A DNA stretch of 64,000 nt from the IMG/VR virus record IMGVR_UViG_3300042946_001496. One strand, given 5' to 3'. Shown here piece after piece: positions 4,827 through 64,000 of this stretch. The position numbers and the translations under genes are program-made. Positions within the stretch are counted from its first letter, which is position 1. Every line of letters starts with the position of its first letter. The DNA is from a virus. Taxonomy: Duplodnaviria; Heunggongvirae; Uroviricota; Caudoviricetes. The notes below the pieces were generated by a model. It was not told where the DNA came from, did not search any database, and saw only the letters and a program-made list of their open reading frames with translations.

Positions 4827-5039
4827 ATGGTGGAAAGACTCTTGACTTTTTCGAGAAAATCCATGATCATTGAGTTCGCCAAAGAAATTGCAGTCAACTT
4901 AAAAAAATATATTGCGACGGCAGTATTATTTTTTTTATCTTTATTGGTTGTGACAGAAATTATAGAGTTTTTGGCGGGTATAGTAGCTGATAAGATTGAA
5001 TCTTTAATCAACTTTTTGTTAAAAAGGAGTTTAAAATGA
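4827..5039 (+). CDS. small membrane protein
   Basis: Hydrophobic core; chosen over the overlapping minus-strand ORF because of the plus-strand operon context. Confidence 0.35.
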   Translation: MVERLLTFSRKSMIIEFAKEIAVNLKKYIATAVLFFLSLLVVTEIIEFLAGIVADKIESLINFLLKRSLK

Positions 5040-6376
5040 ACAGCTTAACACCAACATTAGCATCATTAATATTTGGTTTAAGAGGCAAAATTTCACCAAA
5101 AGAATACAAAATTATAAAAAGACACCTTGATAGTCACAATAAAAAGTCTAAACCTAAGCCAAAGCCTGTAGTTAAATACAAGCTGCTAGATTCTATTACA
5201 GAATCTAACGATAAAAAGAAATTAATTTTTAATTTCAAGAACGATGCAAGCTTTACTTATAACTTAATAAATAAAAGTTTTAATTTAACGGGCAGTTTAT
5301 CTACTGTAGAGTTTATAAGCCCTGTATTGCCAAAAACTTTAAATTCTGAAAGAGAATTGTTTATAACATCTGCAAAAGAACCCTGGATACAAACCTTTTT
5401 TAAGATTTGTAGACATTGTGATATTTCTTTATTAAAAAGTCGTGGTGCCGGTAAAGCAACCTTAAATAGAATTGAAATAATTTCTAAAATTGAAAAATTT
5501 CAAAATCTAAGCAGCTATGATGGCATAGACAAATTAGTTAGAAACAGTAAATTTAAAACGTCGTTAAAAGACCTGGGGCTTGACTCTTGGTTTATTGACG
5601 CTGCTTTAAAAGATGGCAATCTTTGGCACCACATATCAGAATATCAGAATGCTAAAAAATCTAACTTAATTTCAGAATTTCAATTTTTATGGAACAATTA
5701 CAATTATACAAATATTTGTCGTTTGTATAAAAAGCTAGGAAGATTAATTAAAGATCATGATTATGATTTTATCAAAACAATTGATTATTTAAATGAAGGA
5801 ATGAATAATCAAGGAATTAGACCAATATTTAATCTTGATAACCATGGTATAAAGTACAAAGATGATTCACCATATTATAATTGTGATGATAACTACAAAG
5901 TAGCGATAGATCTGCTTTTAGATTATGTCAAATTTCAGACTGATAAAAATTTTGAAAAGTATCCGAGAAATTTAAAAACAGAAGTAGATAAAGCTTTTTA
6001 CAGAAAAAAATTAATTGAAAGTAAAGCTTTATACGAAGCCTCCAAAGAAAATTTTCAAAAATTAAAAGCTCTTGAATTTGAAGATGAAAATTATTGTATA
6101 ATTGCTCCGCAATCTATAGAAGATATAGTAAAAGAAGGAAGTGTTTTAAATCATTGTGTTGCAAATTATGCTCGCAAAGTAGCATCAGGAAGAAGTAGAA
6201 TACTTTTTATGAGAAAAATCACAAATAAAAATATTCCATTTATAACAATTTCGTTAAGCGGAAATAAAATTGAAATGGCTAGAAGGAAGAATAATAATTT
6301 GGTATATGATTCATCTGTAGAAAAAACATTTTTGAACAAATATACAAATCATTTAAAAAGCTTGTCTAAAAATTGA
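5036..6376 (+). CDS. protein with C-terminal PcfJ-like domain
   Basis: AAGGAG RBS. C-terminal IEDIVKEGSVLNHCVANYARKVASGRSRILFMRK...IPFITISL matches the PcfJ-like core as I recall it. Paralogous to the 37410 ORF (ILSLRDRKNIPHLTFIF..GEMKGKGN). Confidence 0.5.
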   Translation: MNSLTPTLASLIFGLRGKISPKEYKIIKRHLDSHNKKSKPKPKPVVKYKLLDSITESNDKKKLIFNFKNDASFTYNLINKSFNLTGSLSTVEFISPVLPKTLNSERELFITSAKEPWIQTFFKICRHCDISLLKSRGAGKATLNRIEIISKIEKFQNLSSYDGIDKLVRNSKFKTSLKDLGLDSWFIDAALKDGNLWHHISEYQNAKKSNLISEFQFLWNNYNYTNICRLYKKLGRLIKDHDYDFIKTIDYLNEGMNNQGIRPIFNLDNHGIKYKDDSPYYNCDDNYKVAIDLLLDYVKFQTDKNFEKYPRNLKTEVDKAFYRKKLIESKALYEASKENFQKLKALEFEDENYCIIAPQSIEDIVKEGSVLNHCVANYARKVASGRSRILFMRKITNKNIPFITISLSGNKIEMARRKNNNLVYDSSVEKTFLNKYTNHLKSLSKN

Positions 6377-6419
6377 TTTTTTGAAACAAAAACGAGTATT
6401 CTAAACTTTAGGAGAATTT

Positions 6420-7466
6420 ATGAAAGAAACTGAGCGAAAAGACGATGCGATTTCTGTAAAGTCAATGCAGATTCCAACCTTGAGTACGAATTCACCATAT
6501 TACACACATGATGAGTCCTGTTTATTAGAATTTTCTATTCGGCGTCAAAATTTAAATCTTAATACTCACAAAATTTCTATAGACATTATTACCTCTGATG
6601 GTGATCGGAAAAATATTTTAAAAGAATATTTAAGCAAAAAAAAATACACAACCATTAGTAATCAAAACGAGTTCATCGCTACCAGTGATTCTGTTTACAT
6701 TTGTCTTACCAGTGGTTTTATTAGTAATAAAACTTTTATAAAAATTGCTGGGGATTATGAGGAGGTAGAAAAAATAAAAGAAGACTTTTTAAACAAATAT
6801 GAATCAACGGAAAATCAAATTTATATTGATTGGAAATTTTTAACAGAAGAAGGTGTTAGAAATTTAAATTGTCCTTTAGATTTAGATCATACCCCTGTTC
6901 AGGAAATGTATCCTTTTTTGAATTGTTCTTTAAACGAATACTACGAAAAATTCATTCAATCAAAATCAAATATTCTAATACTCAAAGGGCCACCAGGGAC
7001 AGGAAAAACAACATTTATTAAAGGGCTATTACATTTTGCAAAAACTAGTGCTTCATTTGTTCAAGACGAATCACTATTGAATAAAGATATTCTTTTTGTT
7101 GACTTTTTTGAAAGTTCTCGAAAGTTTTTAGTTTGTGAAGATGCTGATATTTTCTTGACTCCAAGATGTAAAGGCAATCAATTCGTTCACAGATTTTTGA
7201 ATGTAGCAGAAGGTTTAATATCCAATAAAGAAAAGAAAATAATTCTAACAACTAATATTCCAAGTGTTAACGACATGGATCAAGCCTTGGTACGACCTGG
7301 GCGGTGCTTTGACATTTTAGAGTTTCCTGAACTTAACAAAGATCAAGCAGAAGCTTTAGCTAAAAAGTTTGATCTTGATTTAAACCTTTCTGATAAGACT
7401 TTTACTGTAGCAGAAATTTTAAACAACAAGAAAAATCAAAAAGTAAAATCTATTGGGTTTTGCTAA
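6420..7466 (+). CDS. AAA+ family ATPase
   Basis: Walker A GPPGTGKT, Walker B LVCEDAD, sensor-1 TTN, ALVRPGRCFD arginine-finger region; AGGAGA RBS. Confidence 0.8.
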   Translation: MKETERKDDAISVKSMQIPTLSTNSPYYTHDESCLLEFSIRRQNLNLNTHKISIDIITSDGDRKNILKEYLSKKKYTTISNQNEFIATSDSVYICLTSGFISNKTFIKIAGDYEEVEKIKEDFLNKYESTENQIYIDWKFLTEEGVRNLNCPLDLDHTPVQEMYPFLNCSLNEYYEKFIQSKSNILILKGPPGTGKTTFIKGLLHFAKTSASFVQDESLLNKDILFVDFFESSRKFLVCEDADIFLTPRCKGNQFVHRFLNVAEGLISNKEKKIILTTNIPSVNDMDQALVRPGRCFDILEFPELNKDQAEALAKKFDLDLNLSDKTFTVAEILNNKKNQKVKSIGFC

Positions 7467-11113: not shown

Positions 11114-11293
11114 ATGATGACTTTTTATGAATATTTATCTATAAAAGATAAAATTGAAATATCAGAAATTGCACGGTTTTTTTGGCAAGAAGCAGGCTGT
11201 CCAGAAAACAAAGATTTAGATTTCTGGCTGCTTGCTGAAAAGAAGTATAAATTATTAAAAACATTCAGTAATAGTGCCATATTGAAAATTTAA
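11114..11293 (+). CDS. DUF2934-like protein
   Basis: GAGG RBS; ISEIARFFWQEAGCPENKDLDFWLLAEKKYKLLKTF; about 65 nt nearly identical to the 9928 gene. Confidence 0.55.
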   Translation: MMTFYEYLSIKDKIEISEIARFFWQEAGCPENKDLDFWLLAEKKYKLLKTFSNSAILKI

Positions 11294-11380
11294 ATAATAA
11301 ATAAAATATTAAAAACCGCTGGACTTTCTCCTGTTTTGTGCTATAATATTGGTCTTGTTAAGGAAAAACAGGAGAAAAAA

Positions 11381-11578
11381 ATGCCTAAAAAATATGCTTT
11401 ACTTTCTGTAAAAAATGGAATAGCGACAGTAAAACATAGATGTTGGTTTTGCAAAAAAAAACATAAACTAGAATATCCTTTAGATGATGTTGGAACAAAA
11501 AATAAAGTAAATTCTTTGTGTTTAAAATGTGAAAACGATCTAGATTATTTTAAGAAAACAAATCCAGAAATTTGTTAA
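11381..11578 (+). CDS. small zinc-ribbon protein
   Basis: CAGGAG RBS; CWFCKKK...CLKCEND. Confidence 0.5.
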   Translation: MPKKYALLSVKNGIATVKHRCWFCKKKHKLEYPLDDVGTKNKVNSLCLKCENDLDYFKKTNPEIC

Positions 11579-11582
11579 ATTA

Positions 11583-11789
11583 ATGAATACCGATAATAAA
11601 GATAAATTATTTGATTCTTTTAAAAATGAAAATCTATACAAAAACGAAAATCTATACAAAAGAAAACTAAAAGCTATCTGGAGTGTTGAGACACATCAAG
11701 ATTTGCGTTCATTTTGTAATACCGAAGCAGAAGCTGAATTGTCTAAAATTTTATCAGAATTATTTCAAAGCTTAAAGGAAGAAACTTGA
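11583..11789 (+). CDS. hypothetical protein with KLFDSF N-terminus
   Basis: MNTDNKDKLFDSF; contains an 18-nt tandem duplication (NENLYK x2). Confidence 0.45.
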   Translation: MNTDNKDKLFDSFKNENLYKNENLYKRKLKAIWSVETHQDLRSFCNTEAEAELSKILSELFQSLKEET

Positions 11790-11857
11790 GCATTTGTGCA
11801 ACAACAGGTAAGACTAAGTATAACAGTGATAAAGAAGCTGCTGTTGGTCTTGAAAAT

Positions 11858-11962
11858 ATGAAAAAACATCGCCCTGAGTATGAAGGCGAACCTTATTTTT
11901 GTATGTATTGCAGCAGTTATCATTTTGGAAAAAGACCAGAAAAGAAAAAGAAAGTAAAATGA
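11858..11962 (+). CDS. small Cys-containing basic peptide (possible TTG start at 11786)
   Basis: MKKHRPEYEGEPYFCMYCSSYHFG; its TGA overlaps the downstream ATG. Confidence 0.3.
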   Translation: MKKHRPEYEGEPYFCMYCSSYHFGKRPEKKKKVK

Positions 11963-12285
11963 AAATTAAAAAATATTCGAATGATAAGATAGTTTACTGT
12001 GAGAGGTTTAATGGAGCTGAGATGATCGCGAATGTTTTCGATGACAATAGTGGATATTTTGTTATTAGTAAAAAAAACAAAGAGATATATCTTAGAGAAG
12101 ACGCTACACCAAAACACTGGCTTGCGGATATTGAATTAAAAATAAAGCAATACAACGCAGCAAAAAATTTTTTAGAAAAATTAATTGAAAATCAAAATAA
12201 AGAAAAATTAGCTAAAAAGCCTGCTGAAAAAAAACGTATAAAAGCTATAAAAAAAGTTGATAAGCCGGTTGAGGTAAAAAAGTAA
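11959..12285 (+). CDS. hypothetical Lys-rich protein
   Basis: MKIKKYSNDKIVYC...; Lys-rich C-terminus. Confidence 0.5.
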   Translation: MKIKKYSNDKIVYCERFNGAEMIANVFDDNSGYFVISKKNKEIYLREDATPKHWLADIELKIKQYNAAKNFLEKLIENQNKEKLAKKPAEKKRIKAIKKVDKPVEVKK

Positions 12286-12286
12286 A

Positions 12287-12580
12287 ATGAAAAATTTTCT
12301 TTTATTAATTTGTTGTATGTTAATAGTTGGCTGTGAGCCGCAGGATAGCAAACAAGAAAAAATTGAAGAAAATAATAAAGAAGTTGCGGGTGGCGGACAG
12401 GTTATTGCAACATTTCCAGATGGAACAAAGATTAGATGTTATATTTTAAATGTACCCTATGTTGATAATACTTGGGGAAATCGTAAGGAAACATATCTTG
12501 TTGTTGAACCAAAAGACCCTAATAGTAAAAGCATATTAATCAATGGTCAGCTTTACGCCCCTGCCGAAGAAGATAAATGA
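12287..12580 (+). CDS. lipoprotein
   Basis: Signal peptide with lipobox LIVGC (MKNFLLLICCMLIVGC). Confidence 0.6.
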   Translation: MKNFLLLICCMLIVGCEPQDSKQEKIEENNKEVAGGGQVIATFPDGTKIRCYILNVPYVDNTWGNRKETYLVVEPKDPNSKSILINGQLYAPAEEDK

Positions 12581-12611
12581 TGAAGGGTAAAAATACTTAG
12601 GAGTTTTTTTC

Positions 12612-12797
12612 ATGGAAGAAATTGAATACAAAATAAGCTTTCCTGCTACGAATGAGACAAAGTCTTTTAAAATAAATGACAAGAACAATAACTTCATAGG
12701 AAGTATTTATATTTCTAACGATGGAATATATATTACCTTAAAAGATCATGAAATAACACCGTTTAACAAAACTAGACCTAGGGAGATAAAGTATTGA
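12612..12797 (+). CDS. hypothetical protein
   Basis: AGGAG RBS. Confidence 0.45.
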   Translation: MEEIEYKISFPATNETKSFKINDKNNNFIGSIYISNDGIYITLKDHEITPFNKTRPREIKY

Positions 12798-13039
12798 TTC
12801 TTAAAGTAAATGGAAAAATTGCAGCTAAAACATTAGTTGACATGAACAAAAAAACAATTGTTTGTGTAAATTGCAAATTTTTTGAAAATTCTCCAACAAT
12901 TGAGAGAGAATTTGATTGCTACGGAATGCTAGACGATGTTTTGAAAACGGGCTGCCTAGAAGGCTTGCGGGTTGAAAAAATTGTGCTCGATTGGTTTGAA
13001 AAGGTAAAAAATGACGCTACCTCATCTAATATTGCATGA
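12794..13039 (+). CDS. hypothetical protein (TTG start)
   Basis: GGGAG about 9 nt upstream of the TTG; CVNC..C. Confidence 0.4.
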   Translation: MILKVNGKIAAKTLVDMNKKTIVCVNCKFFENSPTIEREFDCYGMLDDVLKTGCLEGLRVEKIVLDWFEKVKNDATSSNIA

Positions 13040-13137
13040 AACCTTAGTTTTTTGCATAATATATTCTTATTATAATATGTTTATGGAAGATATGAAATGC
13101 ATCAAAGAAAAAAATATGAATGACTAACTATAGTAGT

Positions 13138-13165
13138 AGTTTCTTTCTGGTACGCTGCTACTGTG
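13138..13165 (+). promoter_or_regulatory. conserved GGTACGCTG promoter-like motif (variant tttctttctggtacgctg)
   Basis: One of 13 copies; lies about 40 nt upstream of a GC-rich small gene. Confidence 0.5.
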
Positions 13166-13197
13166 TATCGGAACCATTTTCACAAAGGATATTTGCT

Positions 13198-13368
13198 ATG
13201 GCTAGCGTCGTTGGATACAATAAGTTGGTCGCCGTTATTTTTCAGAAGTATCGTGAGGGCGGCAAGTCGATCAATCTTGCAGAGGCTCGTAAGAAGGCTG
13301 ATAAGATCAGCAAGAATGTTGATTTGAACAACGACGCGGCAATTATCGCTGCTGCCGATATGGTGTGA
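13198..13368 (+). CDS. small GC-rich-codon protein
   Basis: MASVVGYNKLVAVIFQKYREGGKS...; downstream of the conserved motif. Confidence 0.5.
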   Translation: MASVVGYNKLVAVIFQKYREGGKSINLAEARKKADKISKNVDLNNDAAIIAAADMV

Positions 13369-13488
13369 ATTTTAGTCACAAGGGACAGTAGCCGCTATTC
13401 CATATAAGTATGGCGTGGGTGGCTTTGGGGTTGGATCGTAAATGACCCGCTGACCTTATTTTCATTTCATTTAACAAGGAGAATTAAA

Positions 13489-13641
13489 ATGGCTCAGATG
13501 GGTGTTATTGTTCTTGATGGTTCGATTAACGCCGAGGCATGGGCTGCTAAGGTCAAGGCTGAGACTCCCAAGGCTGTTGTCGGTAAGACAGAAACTACGA
13601 TTCAGGGCGTTAATTACATTGTTATCGACAAAGATGGTTGA
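13489..13641 (+). CDS. small GC-rich-codon protein (50 aa)
   Basis: AAGGAG RBS; MAQMGVIVLDGSINAEAWAAKVK...; followed by a terminator. Confidence 0.5.
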   Translation: MAQMGVIVLDGSINAEAWAAKVKAETPKAVVGKTETTIQGVNYIVIDKDG

Positions 13642-13694
13642 TTAAACACACTTGCTACACCGCTCCTTTTGTGATGTGTATAATTGGCAAGTTT

Positions 13695-13728
13695 AAAAGG
13701 GAGGGGTGAAAACCCCTCCCTTTTTTTG
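13695..13728 (+). terminator. rho-independent terminator
   Basis: agggaggggt-gaaa-acccctccct hairpin followed by a T7 run. Confidence 0.8.
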
Positions 13729-13764
13729 TTTTTCATTTATCAATTAAAATAAAAAGAGAATAAA

Positions 13765-54787: not shown

Positions 54788-54815
54788 TCTAGTGGTACGC
54801 TGGGTTTCTGGAGAG
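54788..54815 (+). promoter_or_regulatory. conserved GTGGTACGCTGGG promoter-like motif
   Basis: tctagtggtacgctgggtttctggagag. Confidence 0.5.
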
Positions 54816-54848
54816 AGACTCTGGTTTGAGTTCTTTTAAGGAACAACA

Positions 54849-55031
54849 ATGACTAATTCAGACGAACAAGTATTGATGGGATGTTTGTATGTAGTTTTTG
54901 CGTTGTTGGTTCCGATCATCGCAATTTCGTGCACCAACACTTTATTTGGTCTTCAAATTCAGCCTACTTGGTACAATTATTTGGCTATGGCAATTCTTTT
55001 GTTCATACTTAGAGTGCCGACTGGCAGATAA
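54849..55031 (+). CDS. small membrane protein
   Basis: Two TM helices; downstream of the motif. Confidence 0.45.
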   Translation: MTNSDEQVLMGCLYVVFALLVPIIAISCTNTLFGLQIQPTWYNYLAMAILLFILRVPTGR

Positions 55032-55239
55032 AATCTAGCTTCATTGCAGATTCTAAACACTATGATTTCATAAAACAGTGTAAAAACAAAATGAACAAAA
55101 AGTTCTACTTGAGTTGGGTGTGGAATCCTTTATTCTGGACTATCGAAAAAACCAGAAGATTCAACGGCGGCAATCCTTATGATTGTTATAGGTTTGGACC
55201 GCTCTTTTTAAGAGTATATCTTTAAAAGGAACCAATTTA

Positions 55240-55482
55240 ATGGGCGTTATGTCTTGTAGCCGATCTCAATGCTATAATATCATGTGTGACCTTTGCATTT
55301 ATGACATAGGTTACGTTTGCTCTGATTGTGAAGAAGAATTCAAGGCTGGGTATACTGGTGGTGAAGGTTTCGATGAAATTCGTGAATCGCTTAAGACTTT
55401 CATGGAATCGCCTAAAGTAAAGGTTTGCGTATCTTCAAGCAAAGAGGCTGTGGAAGATTTTTTTAATACTTATCGTTCTTAG
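55240..55482 (+). CDS. small Cys-rich protein
   Basis: MGVMSCSRSQCYNIMCDLCIYDIGYVCSDCEEEF. Confidence 0.5.
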   Translation: MGVMSCSRSQCYNIMCDLCIYDIGYVCSDCEEEFKAGYTGGEGFDEIRESLKTFMESPKVKVCVSSSKEAVEDFFNTYRS

Positions 55483-55489
55483 GAAAAAA

Positions 55490-55717
55490 ATGAAAGTCTC
55501 TGACCTTATTGAACTACTTAGTAATCTTGATCCAAACTCCAGGGTTATTGTACGAAACAAAACCGAGCCAGTAATTTGGGCTGAGGGCGAAGTTACTTGG
55601 TTTCAAGAACTTGCTGTGATCGGTGATGAAGATGAACTTGGATATAGTGTTAGTTGGTGGGAAGAAACCAAACTGTTTAAGGATCTTCTTGAAGGAGAAA
55701 CAAATGAAAATGGATGA
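55490..55717 (+). CDS. hypothetical protein
   Basis: ORF. Confidence 0.45.
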   Translation: MKVSDLIELLSNLDPNSRVIVRNKTEPVIWAEGEVTWFQELAVIGDEDELGYSVSWWEETKLFKDLLEGETNENG

Positions 55718-55907
55718 CTTTAATAAAGTTGATCGGCTGAATATCAAGTTGCTATCAGGTAAAGAGTATATTGGTATGCACTGTATTCGCAATTTCACCA
55801 ATCCTGAAAGCAAAAGACTAACTTTCTTTAATCCAAAAGAAGGTTCCATCATGTCAATTAATTGGAAACTAATTGAGCATGTTTACTTTTATGAAAATGA
55901 AGATTGA
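55704..55907 (+). CDS. hypothetical protein
   Basis: AAGGAG RBS upstream of an internal ATG. Confidence 0.4.
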   Translation: MKMDDFNKVDRLNIKLLSGKEYIGMHCIRNFTNPESKRLTFFNPKEGSIMSINWKLIEHVYFYENED

Positions 55908-55914
55908 TAAAATC

Positions 55915-55941
55915 TCTGTTCGGTGGTACGCTGGTGCTAAG
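55915..55941 (+). promoter_or_regulatory. conserved GGTGGTACGCTGG promoter-like motif
   Basis: tctgttcggtggtacgctggtgctaag. Confidence 0.5.
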
Positions 55942-55973
55942 TTACAGTTTCATAACAAAAAATTGGATAAAAA

Positions 55974-56321
55974 ATGCCGCACCTTGAACGCTTTTACAAC
56001 ATCGGTCATTTGGTAAGCACTTTGCTGAAAAGTATTGAACTTCCGAACCAAAAGAATTACGATCTTCGTAATTTGACAGATGAACAAGCCACTCAAATTA
56101 TTCTTAAGGTGAAAGAATTTTTTGAGTCACGCTTTAATGATTGGTGTGATGGAACATACGATGTAATGAGATGTTGTTTTGTTGATGGTAGTTGTAGTTG
56201 GTTGCTTGACCCACCTACAGACCTCAATAACGATGAAGTTGAAAAACTGATTGATGATTGCTACGATAGCCTTGGTGAAAAAATTCTAAAGCAGAGAGGC
56301 GTGAATGAAAATCAGAATTAA
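55974..56321 (+). CDS. hypothetical protein
   Basis: Downstream of the motif. Confidence 0.5.
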   Translation: MPHLERFYNIGHLVSTLLKSIELPNQKNYDLRNLTDEQATQIILKVKEFFESRFNDWCDGTYDVMRCCFVDGSCSWLLDPPTDLNNDEVEKLIDDCYDSLGEKILKQRGVNENQN

Positions 56322-56649
56322 AGGAATTTCAGTTCCAATTGACGTTAATGATATTGAAGACCCTAATCTTTTGGGTGAATCGCTTAGGGATTTGTTTTTT
56401 GGTACTGAAAAGGGGCGTGGTTGTTATGAAAACTTTGAAGTAGAACCAGGTGTTGAGTATTTAGGTGAGGAACGAGATCCCACTGATTACACTGATCCTG
56501 AATACGCAGTTGTTTACAAAACCTATCAATTTGAAAACATCAAAATGATGTATTATTGGGATGGGGATGGAACTTTGATCTTTATTCTGGGTGATAGGAC
56601 TCTTATGAATAATGATTGCAAGAAAAACTACATTTGGGACTTTGTTTAA
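56305..56649 (+). CDS. hypothetical protein
   Basis: ORF; terminator follows. Confidence 0.5.
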   Translation: MKIRIKGISVPIDVNDIEDPNLLGESLRDLFFGTEKGRGCYENFEVEPGVEYLGEERDPTDYTDPEYAVVYKTYQFENIKMMYYWDGDGTLIFILGDRTLMNNDCKKNYIWDFV

Positions 56650-56673
56650 CACAATTATATAACTTAACGGAAA

Positions 56674-56713
56674 CTCAGGCAAGGACTAACTATCCTTGCC
56701 TGAGTTTTTTTGT
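56674..56713 (+). terminator. rho-independent terminator
   Basis: ctcaggcaagga..tccttgcctgag hairpin followed by a T8 run. Confidence 0.85.
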
Positions 56714-56728
56714 AATTAACACTAAAAA

Positions 56729-56956
56729 TTGACTAACATTAATTCTAAACTTAAAATGAATGAAACTAAAAAAGATCTACTTGACAAATTCGTTTCTTAC
56801 AATTGCCCATATTGTAAGAACATTTTAATCAAAGAGTCTAAAGAAAATTGGCGTACGTTTGATATTGAATCAGGTGAAGAAACTTTTTTTGGAGTTTATG
56901 GTTGCAAAAAGTGTGGATCTTACTTTAGTGGAAAAGTGTTATATGAATGCAAATAA
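56729..56956 (+). CDS. Zn-ribbon LLDSF-family small protein (array 2)
   Basis: KKDLLDKFVSYNCPYCKN...CKKCG; the start may be the internal Met at 56756. Confidence 0.5.
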   Translation: MTNINSKLKMNETKKDLLDKFVSYNCPYCKNILIKESKENWRTFDIESGEETFFGVYGCKKCGSYFSGKVLYECK

Positions 56957-57185
56957 AAAAAAATTGCTTGAAAGCTTTTTGGACCATAAATGTCCTTGGC
57001 ATAACAAAGAATTAGATGATAATAGTAAAATTTTATTTTGTAACGTTGTCGTAACAACTGGACAGTATTGTTGTGGAATTTGGGATAATCACAGAGTAAA
57101 CACTATTCTTGGCAGAATAAAGATTCAAGGATCTGCTTACAAAAGACTTTTAAAAATAAAAGAATACTATGAAAAACTCGCTTGA
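56943..57185 (+). CDS. Zn-ribbon LLDSF-family small protein
   Basis: MNANKKKLLESFLDHKCPWHN..; ends KEYYEKLA. Confidence 0.55.
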   Translation: MNANKKKLLESFLDHKCPWHNKELDDNSKILFCNVVVTTGQYCCGIWDNHRVNTILGRIKIQGSAYKRLLKIKEYYEKLA

Positions 57186-57402
57186 TAGTTTCACAAAACA
57201 TTTTTGCCCTAAATGTTATGAAGAAACTTATGCTCAGCTAAATCCTTCTAACGGAAATAAAATAAGGATTTGTTTGAATAATAATTGTGAAGATCTAGCC
57301 AGAGTTTACACAAAAAATTCAAACTCTCAAGTTTATGTTCACACTCATTCTGTCCCGCCCCATATTGTGCCAGAGCTAAAAAGATTGAAAGATGAACAAT
57401 AA
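57169..57402 (+). CDS. Zn-ribbon LLDSF-family small protein
   Basis: MKNSLDSFTKHFCPKCYE...CLNNNC. Confidence 0.55.
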   Translation: MKNSLDSFTKHFCPKCYEETYAQLNPSNGNKIRICLNNNCEDLARVYTKNSNSQVYVHTHSVPPHIVPELKRLKDEQ

Positions 57403-57712
57403 AAAATTGCTTGAGACTTTTGAAACAGTTTACTACTGTGGATTTTGTTCTGCGTCAATATTCCCGACAAAAACTATAGCAACATTAATTACTGATAAAG
57501 ATTTAATAAAAAAGTGTGACAAATACTGTGTTCCTTCATCAAAAGATTTAGAAAAGCTTCAAGAATCTTTTGATATTACTGAACAGCATGAAAGATTTTA
57601 TTGTAGTTTTTGTGGTAGTTATTCTGCGGTTAACTTGGAATCAAAAAGTATTCACTATATTACAAAGTCTTACAGTTTGTGGCGGTCGCTAAACGAAGGC
57701 TATGAAACATAA
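57392..57712 (+). CDS. Zn-ribbon LLDSF-family small protein
   Basis: MNNKKLLETFETVYYCGFCS...CSFCG. Confidence 0.55.
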   Translation: MNNKKLLETFETVYYCGFCSASIFPTKTIATLITDKDLIKKCDKYCVPSSKDLEKLQESFDITEQHERFYCSFCGSYSAVNLESKSIHYITKSYSLWRSLNEGYET

Positions 57713-57748
57713 ATTGCTTGAAAACTTTGTTAGTTGTTATTTATAAAA

Positions 57749-57850
57749 ATGAAGAAAAAATTACTTTCTAGTTTTTTAGAATACGAATGTCCTTGGCGTG
57801 ATGAGCCTGATAGAAAATGTACTAAAAAATTAAACATAATAAAGTCATGA
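57749..57850 (+). pseudogene. truncated Zn-ribbon LLDSF-family remnant (33 aa)
   Basis: MKKKLLSSFLEYECPWRDEPDRKC.. then a stop; an even shorter remnant MKHKLLENF lies at 57709. Confidence 0.3.
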
Positions 57851-57979
57851 ATTATATTAAAACTATAGGTGAAGAAAAGTTAGAAGAAATATTAGGCATG
57901 GATCGATCGTGGGATACACGCCCTGAATTTGAAAATTATAGTTTAGTTGATGATATTATCAAAAATTATATTGCGTAAT

Positions 57980-58210
57980 ATGAACAGAAAAAAACTGCTA
58001 AGTAGTTTTATTGAATACTGCTGTCCTTTTTCACACTGTGGTGAAAAACTAACCTTTTCAAAAGATATTTTTTATTGTAAAAAACATAAATCATGGGATC
58101 TTGATAATACTGTCTTTTTTTTACACCTTCATCCTAACCCCTCTTACTTAAATAGAGAAAGATTAATTAAACTAAAAGAATACTATGAGTCAGAAATTAG
58201 CTCGCCGTGA
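57980..58210 (+). CDS. Zn-ribbon LLDSF-family small protein
   Basis: MNRKKLLSSFIEYCCPFSHCGEK..; ends LKEYYESE. Confidence 0.5.
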   Translation: MNRKKLLSSFIEYCCPFSHCGEKLTFSKDIFYCKKHKSWDLDNTVFFLHLHPNPSYLNRERLIKLKEYYESEISSP

Positions 58211-58283
58211 GCGAGTAATAAGTAGGTCTAAATCTTATTGAAGAGCTTTTTTAAATTACTTATTTTCATTCATATATAAAAAC

Positions 58284-58928
58284 ATGGAATTCAAAAATTG
58301 GCTTATAGAACATGATTATTTAAAAGACCTTGATCCACTCTCACATGAAAAAGAAAACGATAGAGCAAACGCATTAAATAAATTTTTTCCTGACGGCGAT
58401 ACATATCCGCAAATTAATCTTGAAAACAAAAGAATTGTAATGAGTAAGTACAGGCAGCCGCCAATTGTTATACCATACAAAGGCACGCGGAGCGATAAAC
58501 CAAAAGGTGGATTGTGGTATGGAGAAGGCAATGAGTGGATTAGCTTTATACAATATAATATCCCAAATCTTATTGCCATGTTTGTTCATGAAATTTTTAT
58601 AAATCCATCAAGAATGTGTATAATTCATGATGAAAAAACATTAGAAGATTTTACTTGGAAATATCGTCTAGATGCCGAATCTGAAGTAATTGATTGGGAT
58701 AAAGTTGCTAGCGAATTTGATGGAATAGAGTGTTTTGGCAATGGATTCGATAAAGAAAATTGGCAATATAGTTGGGATGTTCCAAGCGGTTGTATTTGGA
58801 ACAACACAGCATTAAAAGATTCTAAATTGTTATCTGTCTACGATGTGCATAACAAAAAATTCAGAAAAGCAAACGAATTAGGCGTGTATGCAGGAAACGC
58901 AAGTAAAATAAAAAATCCAATTAGATAA
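58284..58928 (+). CDS. hypothetical protein with MEFKNWL leader
   Basis: ORF; interrupts the Zn-ribbon array. Confidence 0.5.
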   Translation: MEFKNWLIEHDYLKDLDPLSHEKENDRANALNKFFPDGDTYPQINLENKRIVMSKYRQPPIVIPYKGTRSDKPKGGLWYGEGNEWISFIQYNIPNLIAMFVHEIFINPSRMCIIHDEKTLEDFTWKYRLDAESEVIDWDKVASEFDGIECFGNGFDKENWQYSWDVPSGCIWNNTALKDSKLLSVYDVHNKKFRKANELGVYAGNASKIKNPIR

Positions 58929-58955
58929 AAGTAAGTATGAGCGATCGAAATCTAA

Positions 58956-59201
58956 ATGATAAAAAAATTATTAGACACTTTTGTTGAAGAAAAGATTTTT
59001 TGTCCATCTAGATGTTATACTTGGGCAGAAACTCGTGATCACACTGGTCATTATCCGACAAAAGACATTTTTTTAAAAAAGATTACCTATATTGATGGTG
59101 TAATAATTTACAAGTGTCCAGGATGTGGTGGTAAATATTCTAAAGAGTTTCTTATTGCTTATGAAATTCATCATGACATAAAGCTTTTTTTGAAACCTTA
59201 A
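58956..59201 (+). CDS. Zn-ribbon LLDSF-family small protein
   Basis: MIKKLLDTFVEEKIFCPSRC...CPGCGG. Confidence 0.55.
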   Translation: MIKKLLDTFVEEKIFCPSRCYTWAETRDHTGHYPTKDIFLKKITYIDGVIIYKCPGCGGKYSKEFLIAYEIHHDIKLFLKP

Positions 59202-59202
59202 A

Positions 59203-59538
59203 ATGAACAAACTGCTTGATAGATTTTTAGGCTTAAAGTGTCCTACCTGTGGCAAGTCTCTAGAACTAAAAACTAAAAAAGAAATTTTACTTTTTACTGC
59301 ACTGTCACCGCCCGTTTACTCTTATCTTGAAAAATTAAACTTAGAAGATAAAGTGCCTGTTTGTTTAGATCACAAAAATAAGAGCGGAAAAGAAATTGGT
59401 ATGTGGGTTTGGACACCATTTTCTACATATGCTATTGAAAAAATGCATAAACAATGTCCATCTGGTTGGGTGCTTCATCCTAACGGAATTGAACCTTTAA
59501 ACAAACTAAAAGAATACTTCAATGAACAAACTGCTTGA
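59203..59538 (+). CDS. Zn-ribbon LLDSF-family small protein
   Basis: MNKLLDRFLGLKCPTCGKS...; ends LKEYFNEQTA. Confidence 0.55.
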   Translation: MNKLLDRFLGLKCPTCGKSLELKTKKEILLFTALSPPVYSYLEKLNLEDKVPVCLDHKNKSGKEIGMWVWTPFSTYAIEKMHKQCPSGWVLHPNGIEPLNKLKEYFNEQTA

Positions 59539-59641
59539 TAGATTTTTAGATTTAAAGTGTCCTACCTGTGGCAAGTCTCTAGAACTAAAAACTAAAAAAG
59601 AAATTTTACTTTTTTTGTTCCACCTAATATTACCGGGTCGC
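59522..59641 (+). pseudogene. truncated duplicate of the 59203 gene (first about 100 nt nearly identical), reading into inserted DNA
   Basis: MNKLLDRFLDLKCPTCGKSLELKTKKEILLF then unrelated sequence and a stop. Confidence 0.45.
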
Positions 59642-59708
59642 TAAGATGGCTAACAGAAAGCTAATTTTATGGATTACTATTCATATTGAAAAGAAGTGAA
59701 GATAACAA

Positions 59709-59933
59709 ATGATTCAAGTTTATTGTGACAATCCATTAAATGCCTCATTAGAATTTGTGAAGGGGCTGCCTTCTATGAGATCGTGCCGTCTTTGGTCACG
59801 GCGGGAGTATCCAGTCGTATCTGTTAAAGTGTTTATTTCCAACAATTTTAATTTCGTCAACAAAAAAGAAGCTCAGCTACATGAAGTGTCCGATGTTGTA
59901 ATTCAGTTCAATTTGATAGAGACCTGTCATTAA
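59709..59933 (+). CDS. hypothetical protein inside the inserted segment
   Basis: ORF; GC-richer DNA. Confidence 0.3.
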   Translation: MIQVYCDNPLNASLEFVKGLPSMRSCRLWSRREYPVVSVKVFISNNFNFVNKKEAQLHEVSDVVIQFNLIETCH

Positions 59934-59980
59934 CTTGATGTGCCCGAATTTTTTGCTATACTTAGATAAGGAGAAAAATA

Positions 59981-60268
59981 ATGACCACTAAACAAAGAAT
60001 TCAAAATATCAAAAGAGAAATTGAATGGTATGGTGTTCGTAAAACTATTGCTGAGGCTATGGTTGAATGTGGCAAATTAGGATTTGAATTTTCTGGTCAT
60101 GGAGCAGGGTTTGGTGGTGAAGACTTTAATTTAGTAGATAATAAAAAAAACCTTTACATAAATTTTTGTGACAAGGGTAGAAGTTGCGAAGTTATGATAT
60201 GCGAAAATGAAATCGCCGTATTTATAGGAACGATTGGAAAGGCAATGAAGTTTCTACATAATTCATAA
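59981..60268 (+). CDS. hypothetical protein inside the inserted segment
   Basis: AAGGAG RBS; MTTKQRIQNIKREIEWYG.. Confidence 0.4.
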   Translation: MTTKQRIQNIKREIEWYGVRKTIAEAMVECGKLGFEFSGHGAGFGGEDFNLVDNKKNLYINFCDKGRSCEVMICENEIAVFIGTIGKAMKFLHNS

Positions 60269-60394
60269 TATCCATCGCCAAATAAAATTAAGAATGGTAC
60301 AAATGCCAGACAAAAAGCATACTATTGTAACGGCTATTAAAAAGCATCCAGAAATAACAAATTGTGATTGAATTTGGGTTCTTCTTTTATATTC

Positions 60395-60477
60395 TCTATA
60401 CGCTAAATAAGACCCGATTTCTACCTTAAAAAACTATCTGAACTAAAAGAATACTTCAATGAACAAACTGCTTGATA
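60395..60477 (+). pseudogene. C-terminal remnant of a Zn-ribbon LLDSF-family gene (...DFYLKKLSELKEYFNEQTA-stop)
   Basis: Matches the C-terminus of the 60736 and 59203 paralogs; no upstream body. Confidence 0.4.
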
Positions 60478-60698
60478 GTTTCTTAGATTTAAAGTGTCCT
60501 TGGCATGACACAAAAATAAGCATACAAAATGAAACTTTATTTTGTATGAAATGTGATGCGGAAACCCTCTCTGGAAATTGGAATATTAATAGAATTAATA
60601 CTCTTTTAGCCGCCACCGAATCTGTTTGGAGAAATAGAATTGAACGTTTAAAAAAACTAAAAGAATACTATAAAAAACAAGAACAAACTACTTTATAG
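60459..60698 (+). CDS. Zn-ribbon LLDSF-family small protein
   Basis: MNKLLDSFLDLKCPWHDTKIS..CMKCD; ends LKEYYKKQEQTTL. Confidence 0.55.
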   Translation: MNKLLDSFLDLKCPWHDTKISIQNETLFCMKCDAETLSGNWNINRINTLLAATESVWRNRIERLKKLKEYYKKQEQTTL

Positions 60699-60699
60699 T

Positions 60700-60927
60700 T
60701 TTTTAGATTTAAAGTGTCCTATTCATGGTTGTAAATTGAAACCGTTAGAAGGAAGTTTATTTTGTCCAACTGAAATAATACTAAAGCTCCATCCAGACGA
60801 AATTTTTTGTGGAAATTGGAATCTTGAAAGAATTGAAAACGTTTTGAGCCTCAACGGATCATATATATCCGATTTCTACCTTAAAAAACTAAATGAACTA
60901 AAAGAATACTTTAATGAACAGAAATAA
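60700..60927 (+). CDS. Zn-ribbon LLDSF-family paralog lacking an ATG (junction ATG mutated to AAG); TTG-initiated or pseudogene
   Basis: ..KLLYSFLDLKCPIHGCKLKPLEGSLFCP..; ends LKEYFNEQK. Confidence 0.35.
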   Translation, partial: FLDLKCPIHGCKLKPLEGSLFCPTEIILKLHPDEIFCGNWNLERIENVLSLNGSYISDFYLKKLNELKEYFNEQK

Positions 60928-60999
60928 ACTATTTGATAGTTTTGTTGAACGAAAACGTTTTGTTGTAGGATATGATCAAAATGGAAATTTAATTTTTAA

Positions 61000-61212
61000 A
61001 TGAAAAAATCTAACAAAGAACTGCTAGACAGCTTTAAAGTTTATTATTGTCCTAATTCTGGAAGATCCTACCCAGTAAACAACCACCCTAAAACAAAATT
61101 AATTAAAACCTTGTTTCAAAATAAATTTAATTATACTTGGTACGAAGGTTACGAGTGTCCAATTTGTCTTTGGCACTGGCTGGAGCATGAATTAAATGAA
61201 CAAACTAAGTAG
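61000..61212 (+). CDS. Zn-ribbon LLDSF-family small protein
   Basis: MKKSNKELLDSFKVYYCPNSG...CPICLWHW; preceded by a 29-aa remnant (60914-61003). Confidence 0.55.
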   Translation: MKKSNKELLDSFKVYYCPNSGRSYPVNNHPKTKLIKTLFQNKFNYTWYEGYECPICLWHWLEHELNEQTK

Positions 61213-61423
61213 TTTTATAGAAAAAAAATGTCCTTGGCACAATCTTCAATTAACAGGACCAGACTTAAGTTGTGAAAAGTGTGGATTCTGGACGAATGAA
61301 AGAGTCAATAGTTTATCCACCTGGCAAAACTATTTTTTATTTATTAAAAGTGCTATGCGCAATGTTGAAGACGGAAGTGAACTACGATTGCAATTACTTA
61401 AAGAATATTATGATGAACAATAA
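61196..61423 (+). CDS. Zn-ribbon LLDSF-family small protein
   Basis: MNKLSSFIEKKCPWHNLQ..CEKCG; ends LKEYYDEQ. Confidence 0.55.
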   Translation: MNKLSSFIEKKCPWHNLQLTGPDLSCEKCGFWTNERVNSLSTWQNYFLFIKSAMRNVEDGSELRLQLLKEYYDEQ

Positions 61424-61565
61424 AAACCAAAAACTGCTTGATTCTTTCGCCAAACCAGTGTGCAAATACTGTAATAAGGAATTGAATATTTACAAAGTCA
61501 TAATGCGTGGTATTTGTTTTAACGAAAAATGTAGCCATAGATTTAAACCTGTAAATATATCATAA
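61410..61565 (+). CDS. Zn-ribbon LLDSF-family small protein
   Basis: MMNNKNQKLLDSFAKPVCKYCNKE...NEKCSHRFK. Confidence 0.5.
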   Translation: MMNNKNQKLLDSFAKPVCKYCNKELNIYKVIMRGICFNEKCSHRFKPVNIS

Positions 61566-61622
61566 AAACTATATTCGAGAAATACGCACTAATTGTCACC
61601 GTTGGTATGGTGTCATGCAATC

Positions 61623-61856
61623 ATGAATCATTCTAACAAAAACTTATTAGATAGCTTCTCTTGGACCATTAACAATGGACAGCCTACAGATTATAAATAT
61701 ATTGAAGCCATGTCTCGCCAAGGACGTTGCTATTGCTGTGCCGTTACTCACCCCCGTCTTCTTGTGATTTTAGATAGAGATGACGATATAATTAAATACA
61801 GAGAAATTAGTATGAGAGATTATCTTAAATACCCTTTGCCCCAGCATGTAAAATGA
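61623..61856 (+). CDS. Zn-ribbon LLDSF-family small protein
   Basis: MNHSNKNLLDSFSWTINNGQ...CYCC. Confidence 0.5.
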   Translation: MNHSNKNLLDSFSWTINNGQPTDYKYIEAMSRQGRCYCCAVTHPRLLVILDRDDDIIKYREISMRDYLKYPLPQHVK

Positions 61857-62026
61857 ACGAATCTAACAAAAAACTCTTAGACAGCTTTGAAATTCCTGAA
61901 TGCTGCAGATGTGGCAGCACTTTGGTTAACCGTGTATCTACCAAGAATTTACAGCGAATTTACTATTGTCAGCCTTGCTCGTGTTACACTGTATATCCTG
62001 AAAACGAAACAAAACAAGCTTCTTAA
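61853..62026 (+). CDS. Zn-ribbon LLDSF-family small protein
   Basis: MNESNKKLLDSFEIPECCRCGS...CQPCSC; 57 aa. Confidence 0.5.
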   Translation: MNESNKKLLDSFEIPECCRCGSTLVNRVSTKNLQRIYYCQPCSCYTVYPENETKQAS

Positions 62027-62058
62027 TTAGATTTGAAAAATGAAATTATTATCAACAA

Positions 62059-62077
62059 TTTGGTGATACGCTAGGGT
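62059..62077 (+). promoter_or_regulatory. conserved GGTGATACGCTAGGGT promoter-like motif immediately abutting the start codon
   Basis: The motif's 3' half is replaced by the ATG; this would give a leaderless or very short-leader transcript. Confidence 0.4.
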
Positions 62078-62290
62078 ATGATGAACAAAAACACTAAAAA
62101 ACTACTTGACTCTTTCACTAAACCAATTTGCAAAAATTGTAATGAAGAATTAGAATTATTTGCCTTTTCTTTATCAGATGATTCAAAACCAATTAAAATC
62201 ATTGATGCCGCTGGTAATTTCGGAGGACGGTGTATTAACGAAAAATGTAGCCATAGATTTAAAACCGTTAGGATAGATAATTATCAGTGA
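62078..62290 (+). CDS. Zn-ribbon LLDSF-family small protein
   Basis: MMNKNTKKLLDSFTKPICKNCNEE...INEKCSHRFK; close paralog of the 61410 gene. Confidence 0.55.
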   Translation: MMNKNTKKLLDSFTKPICKNCNEELELFAFSLSDDSKPIKIIDAAGNFGGRCINEKCSHRFKTVRIDNYQ

Positions 62291-62347
62291 TGCTTTTTAC
62301 CTAAAAACTAAAAAACAAGTTGGCATCGAAGGGATGTAAAGATAATC

Positions 62348-64000
62348 ATGAATTTCTACAAACTAGACTTTTTATTAGAAGGATTGGCAGAAGATTTCAT
62401 AGTCAAAAATCCAGATTTAAAGGTCGCCTATGACAAAGGTATTAAAAACATAGGACTATTGACATGGTTAAATAGTGTTAAAAATCAAGAGCCAATAGAA
62501 GATATAATTCCTGTTATACTAAGTTTTAATAACAACAAACAAAGATTAAAAGAAAAAGATATTAATGCTTATAAAACGGCAGCAAATTTAAGACAAACTT
62601 TAGAAAATCTAGGTAGATCAAAAACTAAACAAGATAAAATATTAAAAAGTGAAGAAACTACTAAAATAGGTGAATTTGGAGACTGGCTTGTTGTTATGCC
62701 TCATACTAGAGAAAGTAGTTGTTTATGGGGAAAAGGAACAAGCTGGTGTACTGCTGCAACAGCATCAGGAAACTTATTTTTAAGTTATACAGGAAAAAAA
62801 CAAAGAAAGATTTTTTTATATTATTTAATTAAAAAAGGAGCAGATTCTGTAAAAGATCCTGATTCAAAGATAAGCATAGGGATCAAGAATAAAGTCATGA
62901 TAATGGATGGTATGGATGGAGGATTAACAGTTAACGCTGCAAATATTGGAATGAATGAGGAAAAACTAAAATCGGTATTAGGTTCAAATTATGATCAAAT
63001 AATCAATGCTATAAAACAGCATAATAATACTATAGAAAAACATCCTGCTCTAGATCAGATAGAAAAAATAGCAAGCAGCAAAAACCCAGAAGACTTAGAA
63101 AATTTTATTAGAGGTATGAGTGAATATGAAGCAATCGATTTTATAGAAAATTTAATGGACCACAATCTTTCACCAGAATTGTTTTTATATGTAATAAAAA
63201 GAAAAAGTGTTGGGGACAGAAGATTTAGTGGAATAAACAAAGAAGATATTGCAATTTTACTTAAAAATGAAAACTTACTGCTTTCTATACTAGAGAAAAA
63301 CTTATCTGATGATGACGTTTATGCTATTTTAGATAGTTTATATTCTAATTCTGGACTCGGATTTTCCCGTGCTCTTGTTGATCCGGAAAATATAATCTTG
63401 AATGTAGCAAAACATAAAAAAGAACTAACTCCTAGAAATGTTTACGACATATTATATTATGCTAATATTACAAACAATTCTCATAGTTTATACTTGGATT
63501 TGATCAAGATTTTAGGAAAAGAAAACTTAATCAAATTAAGAGATTATCCTGATGAAAAATTTGTTTTGATGGACATAGTTTATACTCTACTTTTAGTAGC
63601 TCCTAACAAAAAAGAAACGGCAGATATTTTAGGTAAAAAAAATATTAACAAACTAAGTTCTGATCGTGTTCTTGATCTGTTGCACTACGACTCAGATAAA
63701 AATACAATGGCAGAAATTCTTGGACAAGAAAACATAAACAAACTGAGTGATGGTGAAATTAGAAGATTTAAGAATTATAAAGATAAAGATGAAATTATAA
63801 ACATAATCATAGATTATAAAAAAGAGCTAACTTCAGACAATATTCTTTGGCTTTTACAAAATTCTTCTGACAAAGAAAATTTAGCAAGAAAAATAAAAAA
63901 AGATATTGACAAACTGAGTGGGTATGAAATTTTCATTTCAATTATGAGTACAAATAACCATAATGAAATGGTAAATCTTTTAGGAAAAGAAAACTTTGAA
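62348..64000 (+). CDS. large PcfJ-like domain protein with MNFYKL leader and C-terminal repeats (3' end beyond the window)
   Basis: ESSCLWGKGTSWCTAA...IFLYYLIKKG core; repeated ILGKENI.KLS modules; no stop before the window end. Confidence 0.55.
   Translation, partial: MNFYKLDFLLEGLAEDFIVKNPDLKVAYDKGIKNIGLLTWLNSVKNQEPIEDIIPVILSFNNNKQRLKEKDINAYKTAANLRQTLENLGRSKTKQDKILKSEETTKIGEFGDWLVVMPHTRESSCLWGKGTSWCTAATASGNLFLSYTGKKQRKIFLYYLIKKGADSVKDPDSKISIGIKNKVMIMDGMDGGLTVNAANIGMNEEKLKSVLGSNYDQIINAIKQHNNTIEKHPALDQIEKIASSKNPEDLENFIRGMSEYEAIDFIENLMDHNLSPELFLYVIKRKSVGDRRFSGINKEDIAILLKNENLLLSILEKNLSDDDVYAILDSLYSNSGLGFSRALVDPENIILNVAKHKKELTPRNVYDILYYANITNNSHSLYLDLIKILGKENLIKLRDYPDEKFVLMDIVYTLLLVAPNKKETADILGKKNINKLSSDRVLDLLHYDSDKNTMAEILGQENINKLSDGEIRRFKNYKDKDEIINIIIDYKKELTSDNILWLLQNSSDKENLARKIKKDIDKLSGYEIFISIMSTNNHNEMVNLLGKENFE

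Follow-up and report, generated by a model that had tools for sequence, protein, structure and literature searches.

What joins five large proteins encoded at scattered positions on one stretch of tailed-phage DNA: a common core, or something else? The stretch belongs to a virus of the Caudoviricetes (IMG/VR record IMGVR_UViG_3300042946_001496) and is 64,000 nucleotides (nt) long; the whole of the DNA that was analysed is referred to here as the window. A first-pass annotation had proposed that its open reading frames (ORFs) 5036, 37410, 39236, 53151 and 62348 encode paralogous proteins with a PcfJ-like core and that these proteins are injected or packaged effectors. All five ORFs are present where they had been placed (Table 1). 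ORF 39236 starts with an ATG inside a longer frame that opens with GTG at 39209; homologues begin at the ATG, which was therefore taken as the true start. As judged from the sequences, the five ORFs fall into three families: PcfJ, with 5036 and the remote member 37410; a family designated WCTA, with 62348 and 53151; and the family of 39236. The common feature of four of the proteins is not the core but a short N-terminal leader that resembles the capsid-targeting signal (CTS) of phage T4. The explanation that best fits the whole, and to which we lean, is that proteins of three families carry a CTS-like leader and are packaged and ejected.

Three sequence families

ORF 5036 matches Pfam PF14284 with E 1.4e-21 and 77.3 bits (gathering cut-off 25 bits) and PHROG 3169 with E 2.4e-33, and it contains the complete PcfJ motif series EG..L.HCV..Y / G...ILFLR / P..TIE / Q.RG..N. 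It is a member of the PcfJ family (PF14284, named after PcfJ of pCF10). tblastn revealed homologues in 305 phage records, mostly large phages of Firmicutes (Bacillus, Listeria, Enterococcus), and many of them are annotated as PcfJ-like; in the four records inspected, the gene sits amid replication and nucleotide-metabolism genes. The PcfJ domain is C-terminal, as it is in those PcfJ proteins of other phages that were examined, and when used alone as a query it gave no matches in the word-indexed homologue search. The N-terminus, MNSLTPTLASL, does not match the leader pattern described below. It most probably is a PcfJ protein of the ordinary, intracellular kind. For PcfJ, the literature searched contained annotations but no experimental function. 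A gene encoding an AAA-type ATPase (6420-7466) lies directly downstream of 5036; a conserved gene pair was considered and rejected, as relatives do not keep the pairing.

Searches of Pfam, PHROGs and NCBIfam with the five proteins identified PcfJ in 5036 only, and the other four gave no match to PF14284 even at E<=1. All-against-all BLASTP revealed nothing significant, the best pairs being 53151/62348 (E 0.02 over 15 residues) and 37410/5036 (E 1.3). By profile, 5036 is similar to 37410 and 53151 to 62348; a family comprising all five was not demonstrated. Nor are the five recent paralogues, since separate orthologues of each of them exist in other phages. The PcfJ-like core that the first-pass annotation had assigned to all of them holds for 5036 through Pfam and for 37410 as a remote relative; it does not extend to 53151 and 62348, which have their own domain with weak hints of PcfJ, or to 39236, which belongs to a separate family.

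The pairing of 5036 with 37410, which had been singled out as the clearest, is real. The core conserved in the 37410 family, C-x2-EG-x2-MGHCGN ... GDTILSLRD ... PHLTF ... LGEMKGKGNSKP, can be aligned motif by motif with its PcfJ counterpart, EG..L.HCV..Y ... G...ILFLR ... P..TIE ... I.Q.RG..N; 37410 itself has EGRSMGHCGN, ILSLR, HLTF and EMKGKGN. Comparison of the family by hhalign with a PcfJ core alignment (56 non-redundant sequences from IMG/VR loci) yielded a probability of 87% and P 3.7e-6 over 65 columns. The score of 38.0 was reached by none of 100 block shuffles, the maximum of which was 22.4. The hidden Markov model (HMM) of the 37410 family matches many PcfJ sequences in a 275-sequence set (E 6e-5 to 4e-3), and among the 622 ORFs of the window the PcfJ model ranks 37410 as its first foreign match and the 37410-family model ranks 5036 second. 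An AlphaFold (AF2) model of residues 1-250 had a mean predicted local distance difference test (pLDDT) value of 78. Foldseek placed the 37410 model in BFVD next to one unnamed top match and then mainly PcfJ-like proteins, with E 7.7e-8 to 1e-3. The PcfJ and 37410 alignments found nothing when used as profile queries against PDB sequences, and the word-indexed search contained only 11 homologues of 37410. Protein 37410 is a genuine remote homologue of PcfJ, below the level of Pfam membership. It shares with PcfJ the motifs EG-x2-[LM]-x-HC, G-x3-IL-x-LR, P-x2-T-[IF] and G-x-[IL]-x-[QE]-x-[RK]-G-x2-N and the predicted fold, and differs from it in that the domain lies in the middle of the protein, after the leader and a helical domain and before LRV repeats.

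These repeats, which had been noticed in the first pass, are recognized by the Pfam LRV model (PF01816) with E 2.4e-5 and 24.9 bits in the whole protein and E 1.2e-6 and 29.0 bits in the C-terminal part, both above the gathering cut-off of 21.6 bits; three N..TP anchors are located at residues 323, 357 and 383. In a relative contig (L129, which carries P0007), about 3.4 kb (11150-14570) directly after the 37410 homologue contain no called genes. The contig is otherwise gene-dense, and Pro, Gly, Ala and Arg are abundant in the six-frame translations of the gap, which suggests a high GC content. An insertion, a misassembly or an intron-like element might account for the gap.

The second family has no name and no Pfam model; we designate it WCTA after the motif G-x-T-x-W-C-T-A. 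Its hallmark, contained in the N-terminal 250 residues of 62348, is W-x-V-V-x-P-x-T-x-E-A-S-C-x2-G-K-G-T-x-W-C-T-A ... N-x-F-x2-Y ... L-Y-x-I. ORF 62348 matches PHROGs 28193 and 17056 with E ~1e-9, both of unknown function; 53151 has neither Pfam nor PHROG matches. Its membership follows from hhalign with the 62348-family profile (probability 94%, P 1.1e-7) and from an hmmsearch of the window ORFs, in which the WCTA model picks 53151 at E 4.2e-7. Relatives occur in 33 IMG/VR loci (viral contigs) and, among cultured phages, as gp205 of the Pseudomonas jumbo phage PA5oct (QCG76086) and as the paralogues gp34/37/40 of Salicola phage SCTP-2. Single queries with 62348, 39236 and 53151 found none in the viral-contig scans, and tblastn found none for 53151 and 39236 in cultured phages. 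PA5oct gp205 and the SCTP-2 proteins share the N-terminal WCTA domain of 62348 and 53151, and SCTP-2 likewise has several paralogues with differing C-terminal repeats (DUF4116); they differ in their C-terminal modules, have 27-31% identity, and their N-termini are only loosely leader-like. An annotation of PF24637 on a homologue (P0013) was sub-threshold and was rejected as spurious.

The C-terminal repeats of 62348, of the ILGKENI.KLS type as the first-pass annotation had stated, have no Pfam match. Their anchors, '[IL]LG[KQ][EK]N' followed by 'x-K-L', occur in four exact copies (residues 388, 427, 457 and 544) and one degenerate copy, and adjacent anchors are spaced about 30-39 residues apart. 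Across phages and giant viruses, the WCTA domain is followed by various solenoid or repeat modules, which are interchangeable and make up the C-terminal part. Those of the LRV/HEAT, pentapeptide and DUF4116 types were seen directly; fusions to leucine-rich repeats (LRR) and ankyrin are known from database descriptions only.

The family of 39236 is very large: a full HMMER scan yielded 818 cluster representatives with E<=1e-3, of which 287 had E<=1e-30. No Pfam domain was found in 8 long members, and no source provided an informative name. The profile comparison with PcfJ yielded P 0.015 and a probability of 3%, covering the first strand only, and of the PcfJ motifs 39236 has only 'IISR.P.D' and SCH. 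Inclusion of 39236 in a PcfJ-like group is not supported by these sequence comparisons. A gene for ribosomal protein S21 adjoins the family member in contig L134.

A short leader on otherwise unrelated proteins

Four of the five proteins, and at least six others in the window, begin with M-(N/K)-x-F-x-x-(F/W/Y)-(L/I)-x-E, a leader of 10-12 residues (37410, MNFHKLYQLINE; 39236, MLNFKQYINE; 53151, MNFYEFYNLVAE; 62348, MNFYKLDFLLE). The pattern occurs at none of 197 internal Met positions and is kept in the homologues of each family examined, including homologues with 35-60% identity. In a related contig, seven adjacent genes begin with sequences like MKTFNEWLIEN. Another contig, of a more distant phage (L135, which carries P0100), encodes between 3708 and 13964 four proteins, a 39236 homologue and three unrelated neighbours including a GP88-domain protein, that share a longer leader, M-R-x-x-D-x3-L-E-x2-Y-x-K-[VI]-L-x-x-E. 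If a portable targeting signal evolves together with its receptor, such a lineage-specific variant is to be expected. Genes for an ArdC-N-like protein and for ribosomal protein S21 are located nearby on this contig. The leader is a discrete, portable element, and it, instead of the core, is what the four proteins have in common.

The CTS of T4, MKTYQEFIAE, sends internal proteins (IPs) into the scaffolding core and is removed once (PMC8442874; PMC3012670). The leader resembles this CTS in length, in pattern and in the terminal [LIV]-x-E. In T4, the prohead protease cuts after an [LIV]-x-Glu site. The likeness to IPI, IPII and IPIII extends to a leader of about ten residues (MKTFNEWLIE of a relative and MKTYQEFIAE have 5 identical and 5 conservative positions), to its occurrence on otherwise unrelated, fast-evolving proteins, and to a member of the 39236 family encoded in a head module with the S77 protease, the portal protein and Gp23. 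Unlike the T4 proteins, which are small and basic, the cargo here would be large (140-700+ residues) and multidomain, and at least 10 tagged genes are scattered over the 64-kb window instead of forming one IP locus; packaging and cleavage are here predictions. One of the additional carriers, 30873, matches ART-PolyVal with E 1.6e-6 and 29.4 bits, just below the cut-off of 31.2 bits.

Several leader genes are preceded by the sequence TATATAAA, which occurs in the window at 5 sites compared with 7.5 expected by chance and is thus rarer than expected. Of these 5 sites, four precede leader genes by 3-32 nt, and three almost touch the ATG (3-6 nt before 30873, 53151 and 58284; 5 nt for 30873 and 3 nt for 58284), with no Shine-Dalgarno sequence. 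The T4 late promoter, TATAAATA, is similar. The position of TATATAAA near the ATG suggests a late-type promoter from which near-leaderless mRNAs would be formed. The divergent leader genes 38731 (minus strand) and 39236 (plus strand) are separated by a 61-nt AT-rich spacer that contains an exact TATATAAA on the plus strand and a one-mismatch copy on the minus strand.

Two other N-terminal or leader-like features were observed in the window. The protein encoded at 36187-37413 (408 residues) does not start with a leader; a leader-like segment, 'ESFKNWLSLVEN', is instead located internally, near residue 233, and the C-terminal half is Cys-rich. This protein may represent a fusion or contain an internal processing site. 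Two arrays of small ORFs (50-110 residues; 172-3566 and 56700-62300), about 20 ORFs over two listings, encode the N-terminal motif 'K-K-L-L-D-S-F' followed by C-x2-C zinc-ribbon-like pairs. They form a second N-terminal motif family, distinct from the leader.

Packaging weighed against other explanations

The four leader-bearing proteins are probably capsid-targeted cargo that is ejected into the host together with the DNA, as their N-termini and their relatives suggest. Support comes from the resemblance of the leader to the T4 CTS and its presence on proteins that are not related to each other, both here and in related phages. It also comes from P0078, a member of the 39236 family whose gene in another phage lies in a T4-type head module, between the Portal_T4/Peptidase_S77 genes and the Gp23 gene; we take Peptidase_S77 to be the family of the T4 gp21 protease. 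Furthermore, the 62348 homologue gp205 of PA5oct is annotated as 'structural protein, ESI-MS/MS', that is, detected by mass spectrometry, and is encoded in the structural module, where the adjoining gene, as read by eye, presumably encodes the large terminase. The proposal of injected or packaged effectors thus has circumstantial support as far as it concerns leader-bearing proteins. It has none for PcfJ as such: the leader is absent from 5036, the one canonical PcfJ protein, for which the link between PcfJ and packaging thus fails.

In the proposed sequence of events, the leader genes would be transcribed from the late-type TATATAAA promoters, the leader would dock their products into the scaffolding core within a T4-type prohead, and a gp21-like (Peptidase_S77) protease would remove it after Glu. 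The mature proteins would remain in the head until they are ejected along with the DNA. Inside the host cell, their Cys-containing alpha/beta core would act on a target, with the variable repeat module determining which one. As the fold search pointed to a GNAT-like fold, this core may be an enzyme.

Several points argue against packaging or weaken its support. The window holds no structural gene, prohead protease gene or capsid gene, so that a T4-type head of this phage is deduced from relatives, and packaging and cleavage of the leader proteins are likewise predicted from sequence and relatives. Several leader genes have Trp, not Leu, Ile or Val, three positions before the Glu. The N-terminal helix of the 62348 family runs on into a conserved 'LLEGxAED' and is maybe part of the fold. 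P0078, the member encoded inside a head module, has no short leader. The mass-spectrometric 'structural' label of PA5oct was also given to a protein that resembles, by eye, a gp32-type single-stranded DNA-binding protein, and for this reason the label is no proof of packaging. Finally, the link of WCTA to PcfJ is weak, and WCTA may be a very distant relative.

Alternatively, the shared N-terminus could be a structural helix or could reflect a constraint on translation initiation of near-leaderless mRNAs, and the proteins would act in the cell without being packaged. We consider this somewhat unlikely, though it accounts for several observations. The TATATAAA sites 3-6 nt before the ATG of 30873, 53151 and 58284 leave no room for a Shine-Dalgarno sequence, in AF2 models the helix that contains residues 3-12 or 3-20 extends into the N-domain, and the leader genes lie amid small early-type genes, outside any structural module. 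Against it stand the conservation at the protein level with variable codons, which persists at 35-60% identity, the same leader on proteins of unrelated folds, the other lineage with its own variant on a 39236 homologue and unrelated neighbours, and a T4 CTS likeness that reaches the terminal Glu. Packaging remains the preferred reading.

It is unlikely that the five cores have a single PcfJ-like ancestor in common and form one diversified effector superfamily, with a common core made up of a strand with Pro, a conserved Cys after His, Trp or Ser, a Tyr, a Gly and then a hydrophobic strand. What speaks for such an origin is that the weak cross-family signals agree in direction and register. 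In hhalign comparisons with PcfJ, the full WCTA profile gave P 1e-3 and a divergent sub-profile P 4e-4, the latter over 100 columns (probability 22-35%), and none of 100 shuffles reached the score. The alignment of the PcfJ HMM with WCT_L042 spans about 93 columns (E 0.011 for the domain and 0.006 for the whole sequence), the WCTA HMM matches PCF_L079 with E 0.002, and these reciprocal matches share one register in which W-C is superposed on H-C. The best foreign match of the 39236-family HMM is a PcfJ sequence (E 0.013), fragments of 39236 align piecewise with PcfJ (P 0.007) and WCTA (P 0.018), and paired Cys residues 9-10 positions apart were seen by eye in three families. Arguing against a single ancestor is the lack of significance throughout when 39236 is compared with PcfJ, GHCGN or WCTA. 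A close relationship of WCTA to the 37410 family was rejected because no signal was obtained (P 0.2-0.8). In the Foldseek search with the 62348 model, PcfJ-like proteins appeared only in 17th place with E 0.06, the model being poor in the motif region (pLDDT <50 at residues 122-150). The Pfam PcfJ model, as mentioned, misses four of the five. Of the PcfJ motif series, 62348 and 53151 have only G.T.WCTA and the hydrophobic strand; together with 39236 they differ from PcfJ in lacking the His-Cys and QxRGxxN motifs.

A still broader proposal, which we regard as quite improbable, combines common descent with packaging. The PcfJ-like, WCTA and 39236 cores would form one ancient superfamily with a GNAT fold that modifies proteins or nucleic acids in a Cys-dependent manner, is loaded by a portable CTS-type leader into the capsids of T4-like jumbo phages and is retargeted by swapped C-terminal repeats (LRV/HEAT, pentapeptide DNA mimics, DUF4116, LRR, ankyrin). 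At the other extreme, a mere chance resemblance in an AT-rich proteome rich in Lys, Asn and Ile, with only 5036 being PcfJ and nothing else linking the five, is suggested by the GC content of 29-37% and the non-significant pairwise BLASTP but is very improbable, as the reciprocal profile and structure links refute it for the pairs 5036/37410 and 53151/62348, and the leader is absent at internal Met positions.

Setting of the genes and comparison with known systems

The features of the window that bear on the leader and on the three families are collected in Table 1.

Table 1. Positions in the window of the proteins, domains and sequence motifs discussed (aa, amino acid residues)
Feature	Position (nt)	Strand	Remarks
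5036, canonical PcfJ-family protein, 446 aa	5036..6376	+	PcfJ domain aa 302-422 (nt 5939-6301); without leader
TATATAAA, fifth site	28751-28758		
30873, ADP-ribosyltransferase-like protein, 149 aa	30873..31322	+	leader MKTFNKWLEN; Pfam ART-PolyVal
Leader-like protein, 152 aa	34207..34665	-	MNFKQYLLKD
Leader-tagged protein, 143 aa	34674..35105	-	MQNFLDWMRLFEE; PHROG 12204, E 1.4e-18, function unknown
Leader-tagged protein, 169 aa	35715..36224	+	MLKFKIWVEY
37410, leader-tagged divergent PcfJ-like protein, 442 aa	37410..38738	+	leader aa 1-12 (nt 37410-37445), then helical N-domain
37410, core 'EGxxMGHCGN...ILSLR...LTF...EMKGKGN'	37857-38159	+	aa ~150-250; PcfJ-like
37410, LRV repeats	38355-38684	+	aa ~316-425; Pfam
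38731, leader-tagged protein, 147 aa	38731..39174	-	MKFKQWLEDF; divergent from 39236
39236, leader-tagged protein of large uncharacterised family, 701 aa	39236..41341	+	leader aa 1-10 (nt 39236-39265)
39236, conserved core	39608-40225	+	aa ~125-330; motif ysIIISRxPIDxxRMSDhxxIxSCHSPGGxYFxCAxQEAKxGGAIAY
53151, leader-tagged divergent WCTA member, 421 aa	53151..54416	+	leader aa 1-12
53151, core 'CKLGKDTEWCTAQ...IYIIHQ...IYQF...QFMDNEN'	53724-53975	+	aa ~192-275
58284, leader-tagged protein, 214 aa	58284..58928	+	MEFKNWLIEH
62348, leader-tagged WCTA protein, >551 aa	62348..64000	+	runs off window end; N-terminal part helical
62348, core 'GDWLVVMPHTRESSCLWGKGTSWCTAAT...IFLYYLIKK'	62630-63052	+	aa ~95-235
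62348, novel helical repeats of ~30-39 aa	63416-64000	+	aa ~357-551
TATATAAA motif	30860-30867, 39196-39203, 53137-53144, 58273-58280	+	before leader genes 30873, 39236, 53151, 58284

Nearly every gene of the window is on the plus strand. A near-identity DNA search among 50,697 phage records found no close relative. A protein identical to 37410 is present on JGI metagenome contigs, for example in sample 3300002835, the contig prefix of which we take to denote a freshwater lake series (the database does not name the environment). The phage is presumed to be large and uncultured because contigs that carry relatives reach 330 kb. The window also encodes a UvdE-type UV damage endonuclease at 15417-16322 (Pfam E 2.2e-39), and a ribosomal S21 gene, seen next to the 39236-family member in L134, is also near the one in L135.

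The concept of head-packaged, host-modifying proteins that are injected with the DNA, and of a constant module combined with variable modules, is shared with T4 Alt, the packaging of which has been described (PMC5512222), with MuF-type polymorphic toxins and with polyvalent proteins. The ART-PolyVal match of 30873 extends the likeness to polyvalent proteins and parallels the packaged Alt enzyme. Instead of one giant fusion, there is here a separate leader-tagged protein for each activity, and the polyvalent-protein survey contained no occurrence of PcfJ.

The GNAT acetyltransferases (HAT1, MYST/Tip60/KAT8, ESCO1 and small GNATs) are the known enzymes with which the PcfJ core was compared. The PcfJ sequence Q-x-R-G-x-x-N lies between a strand and a helix and, by eye, recalls motif A, Q/R-x-x-G-x-G/A. 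Position 6 of motif A is not conserved as Gly or Ala in PcfJ, the PcfJ domain appears to stop before GNAT beta6, and PcfJ has no sequence-level match to any solved structure. The GNAT-like fold of the PcfJ core is a lead and not a classification.

PcfJ is a widespread domain of phages and plasmids without known function, and neither the WCTA family nor that of 39236, both of them large, has a name or a Pfam entry. The GNAT-like lead makes the function of PcfJ open to experiment, and if the ancient-superfamily reading were true, these proteins would be a modular arsenal of injected effectors and would provide a first mechanism for the PcfJ domain. If the leader is a capsid-targeting signal, one phage would have at least 10 candidate ejected proteins, among them an ADP-ribosyltransferase-like protein and repeat-bearing proteins. 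The CTS principle of T4 would then extend from small anti-restriction proteins to large modular ones in uncultured T4-like phages, and metagenomes could be searched with the simple leader pattern for injected effectors of anti-defence or takeover.

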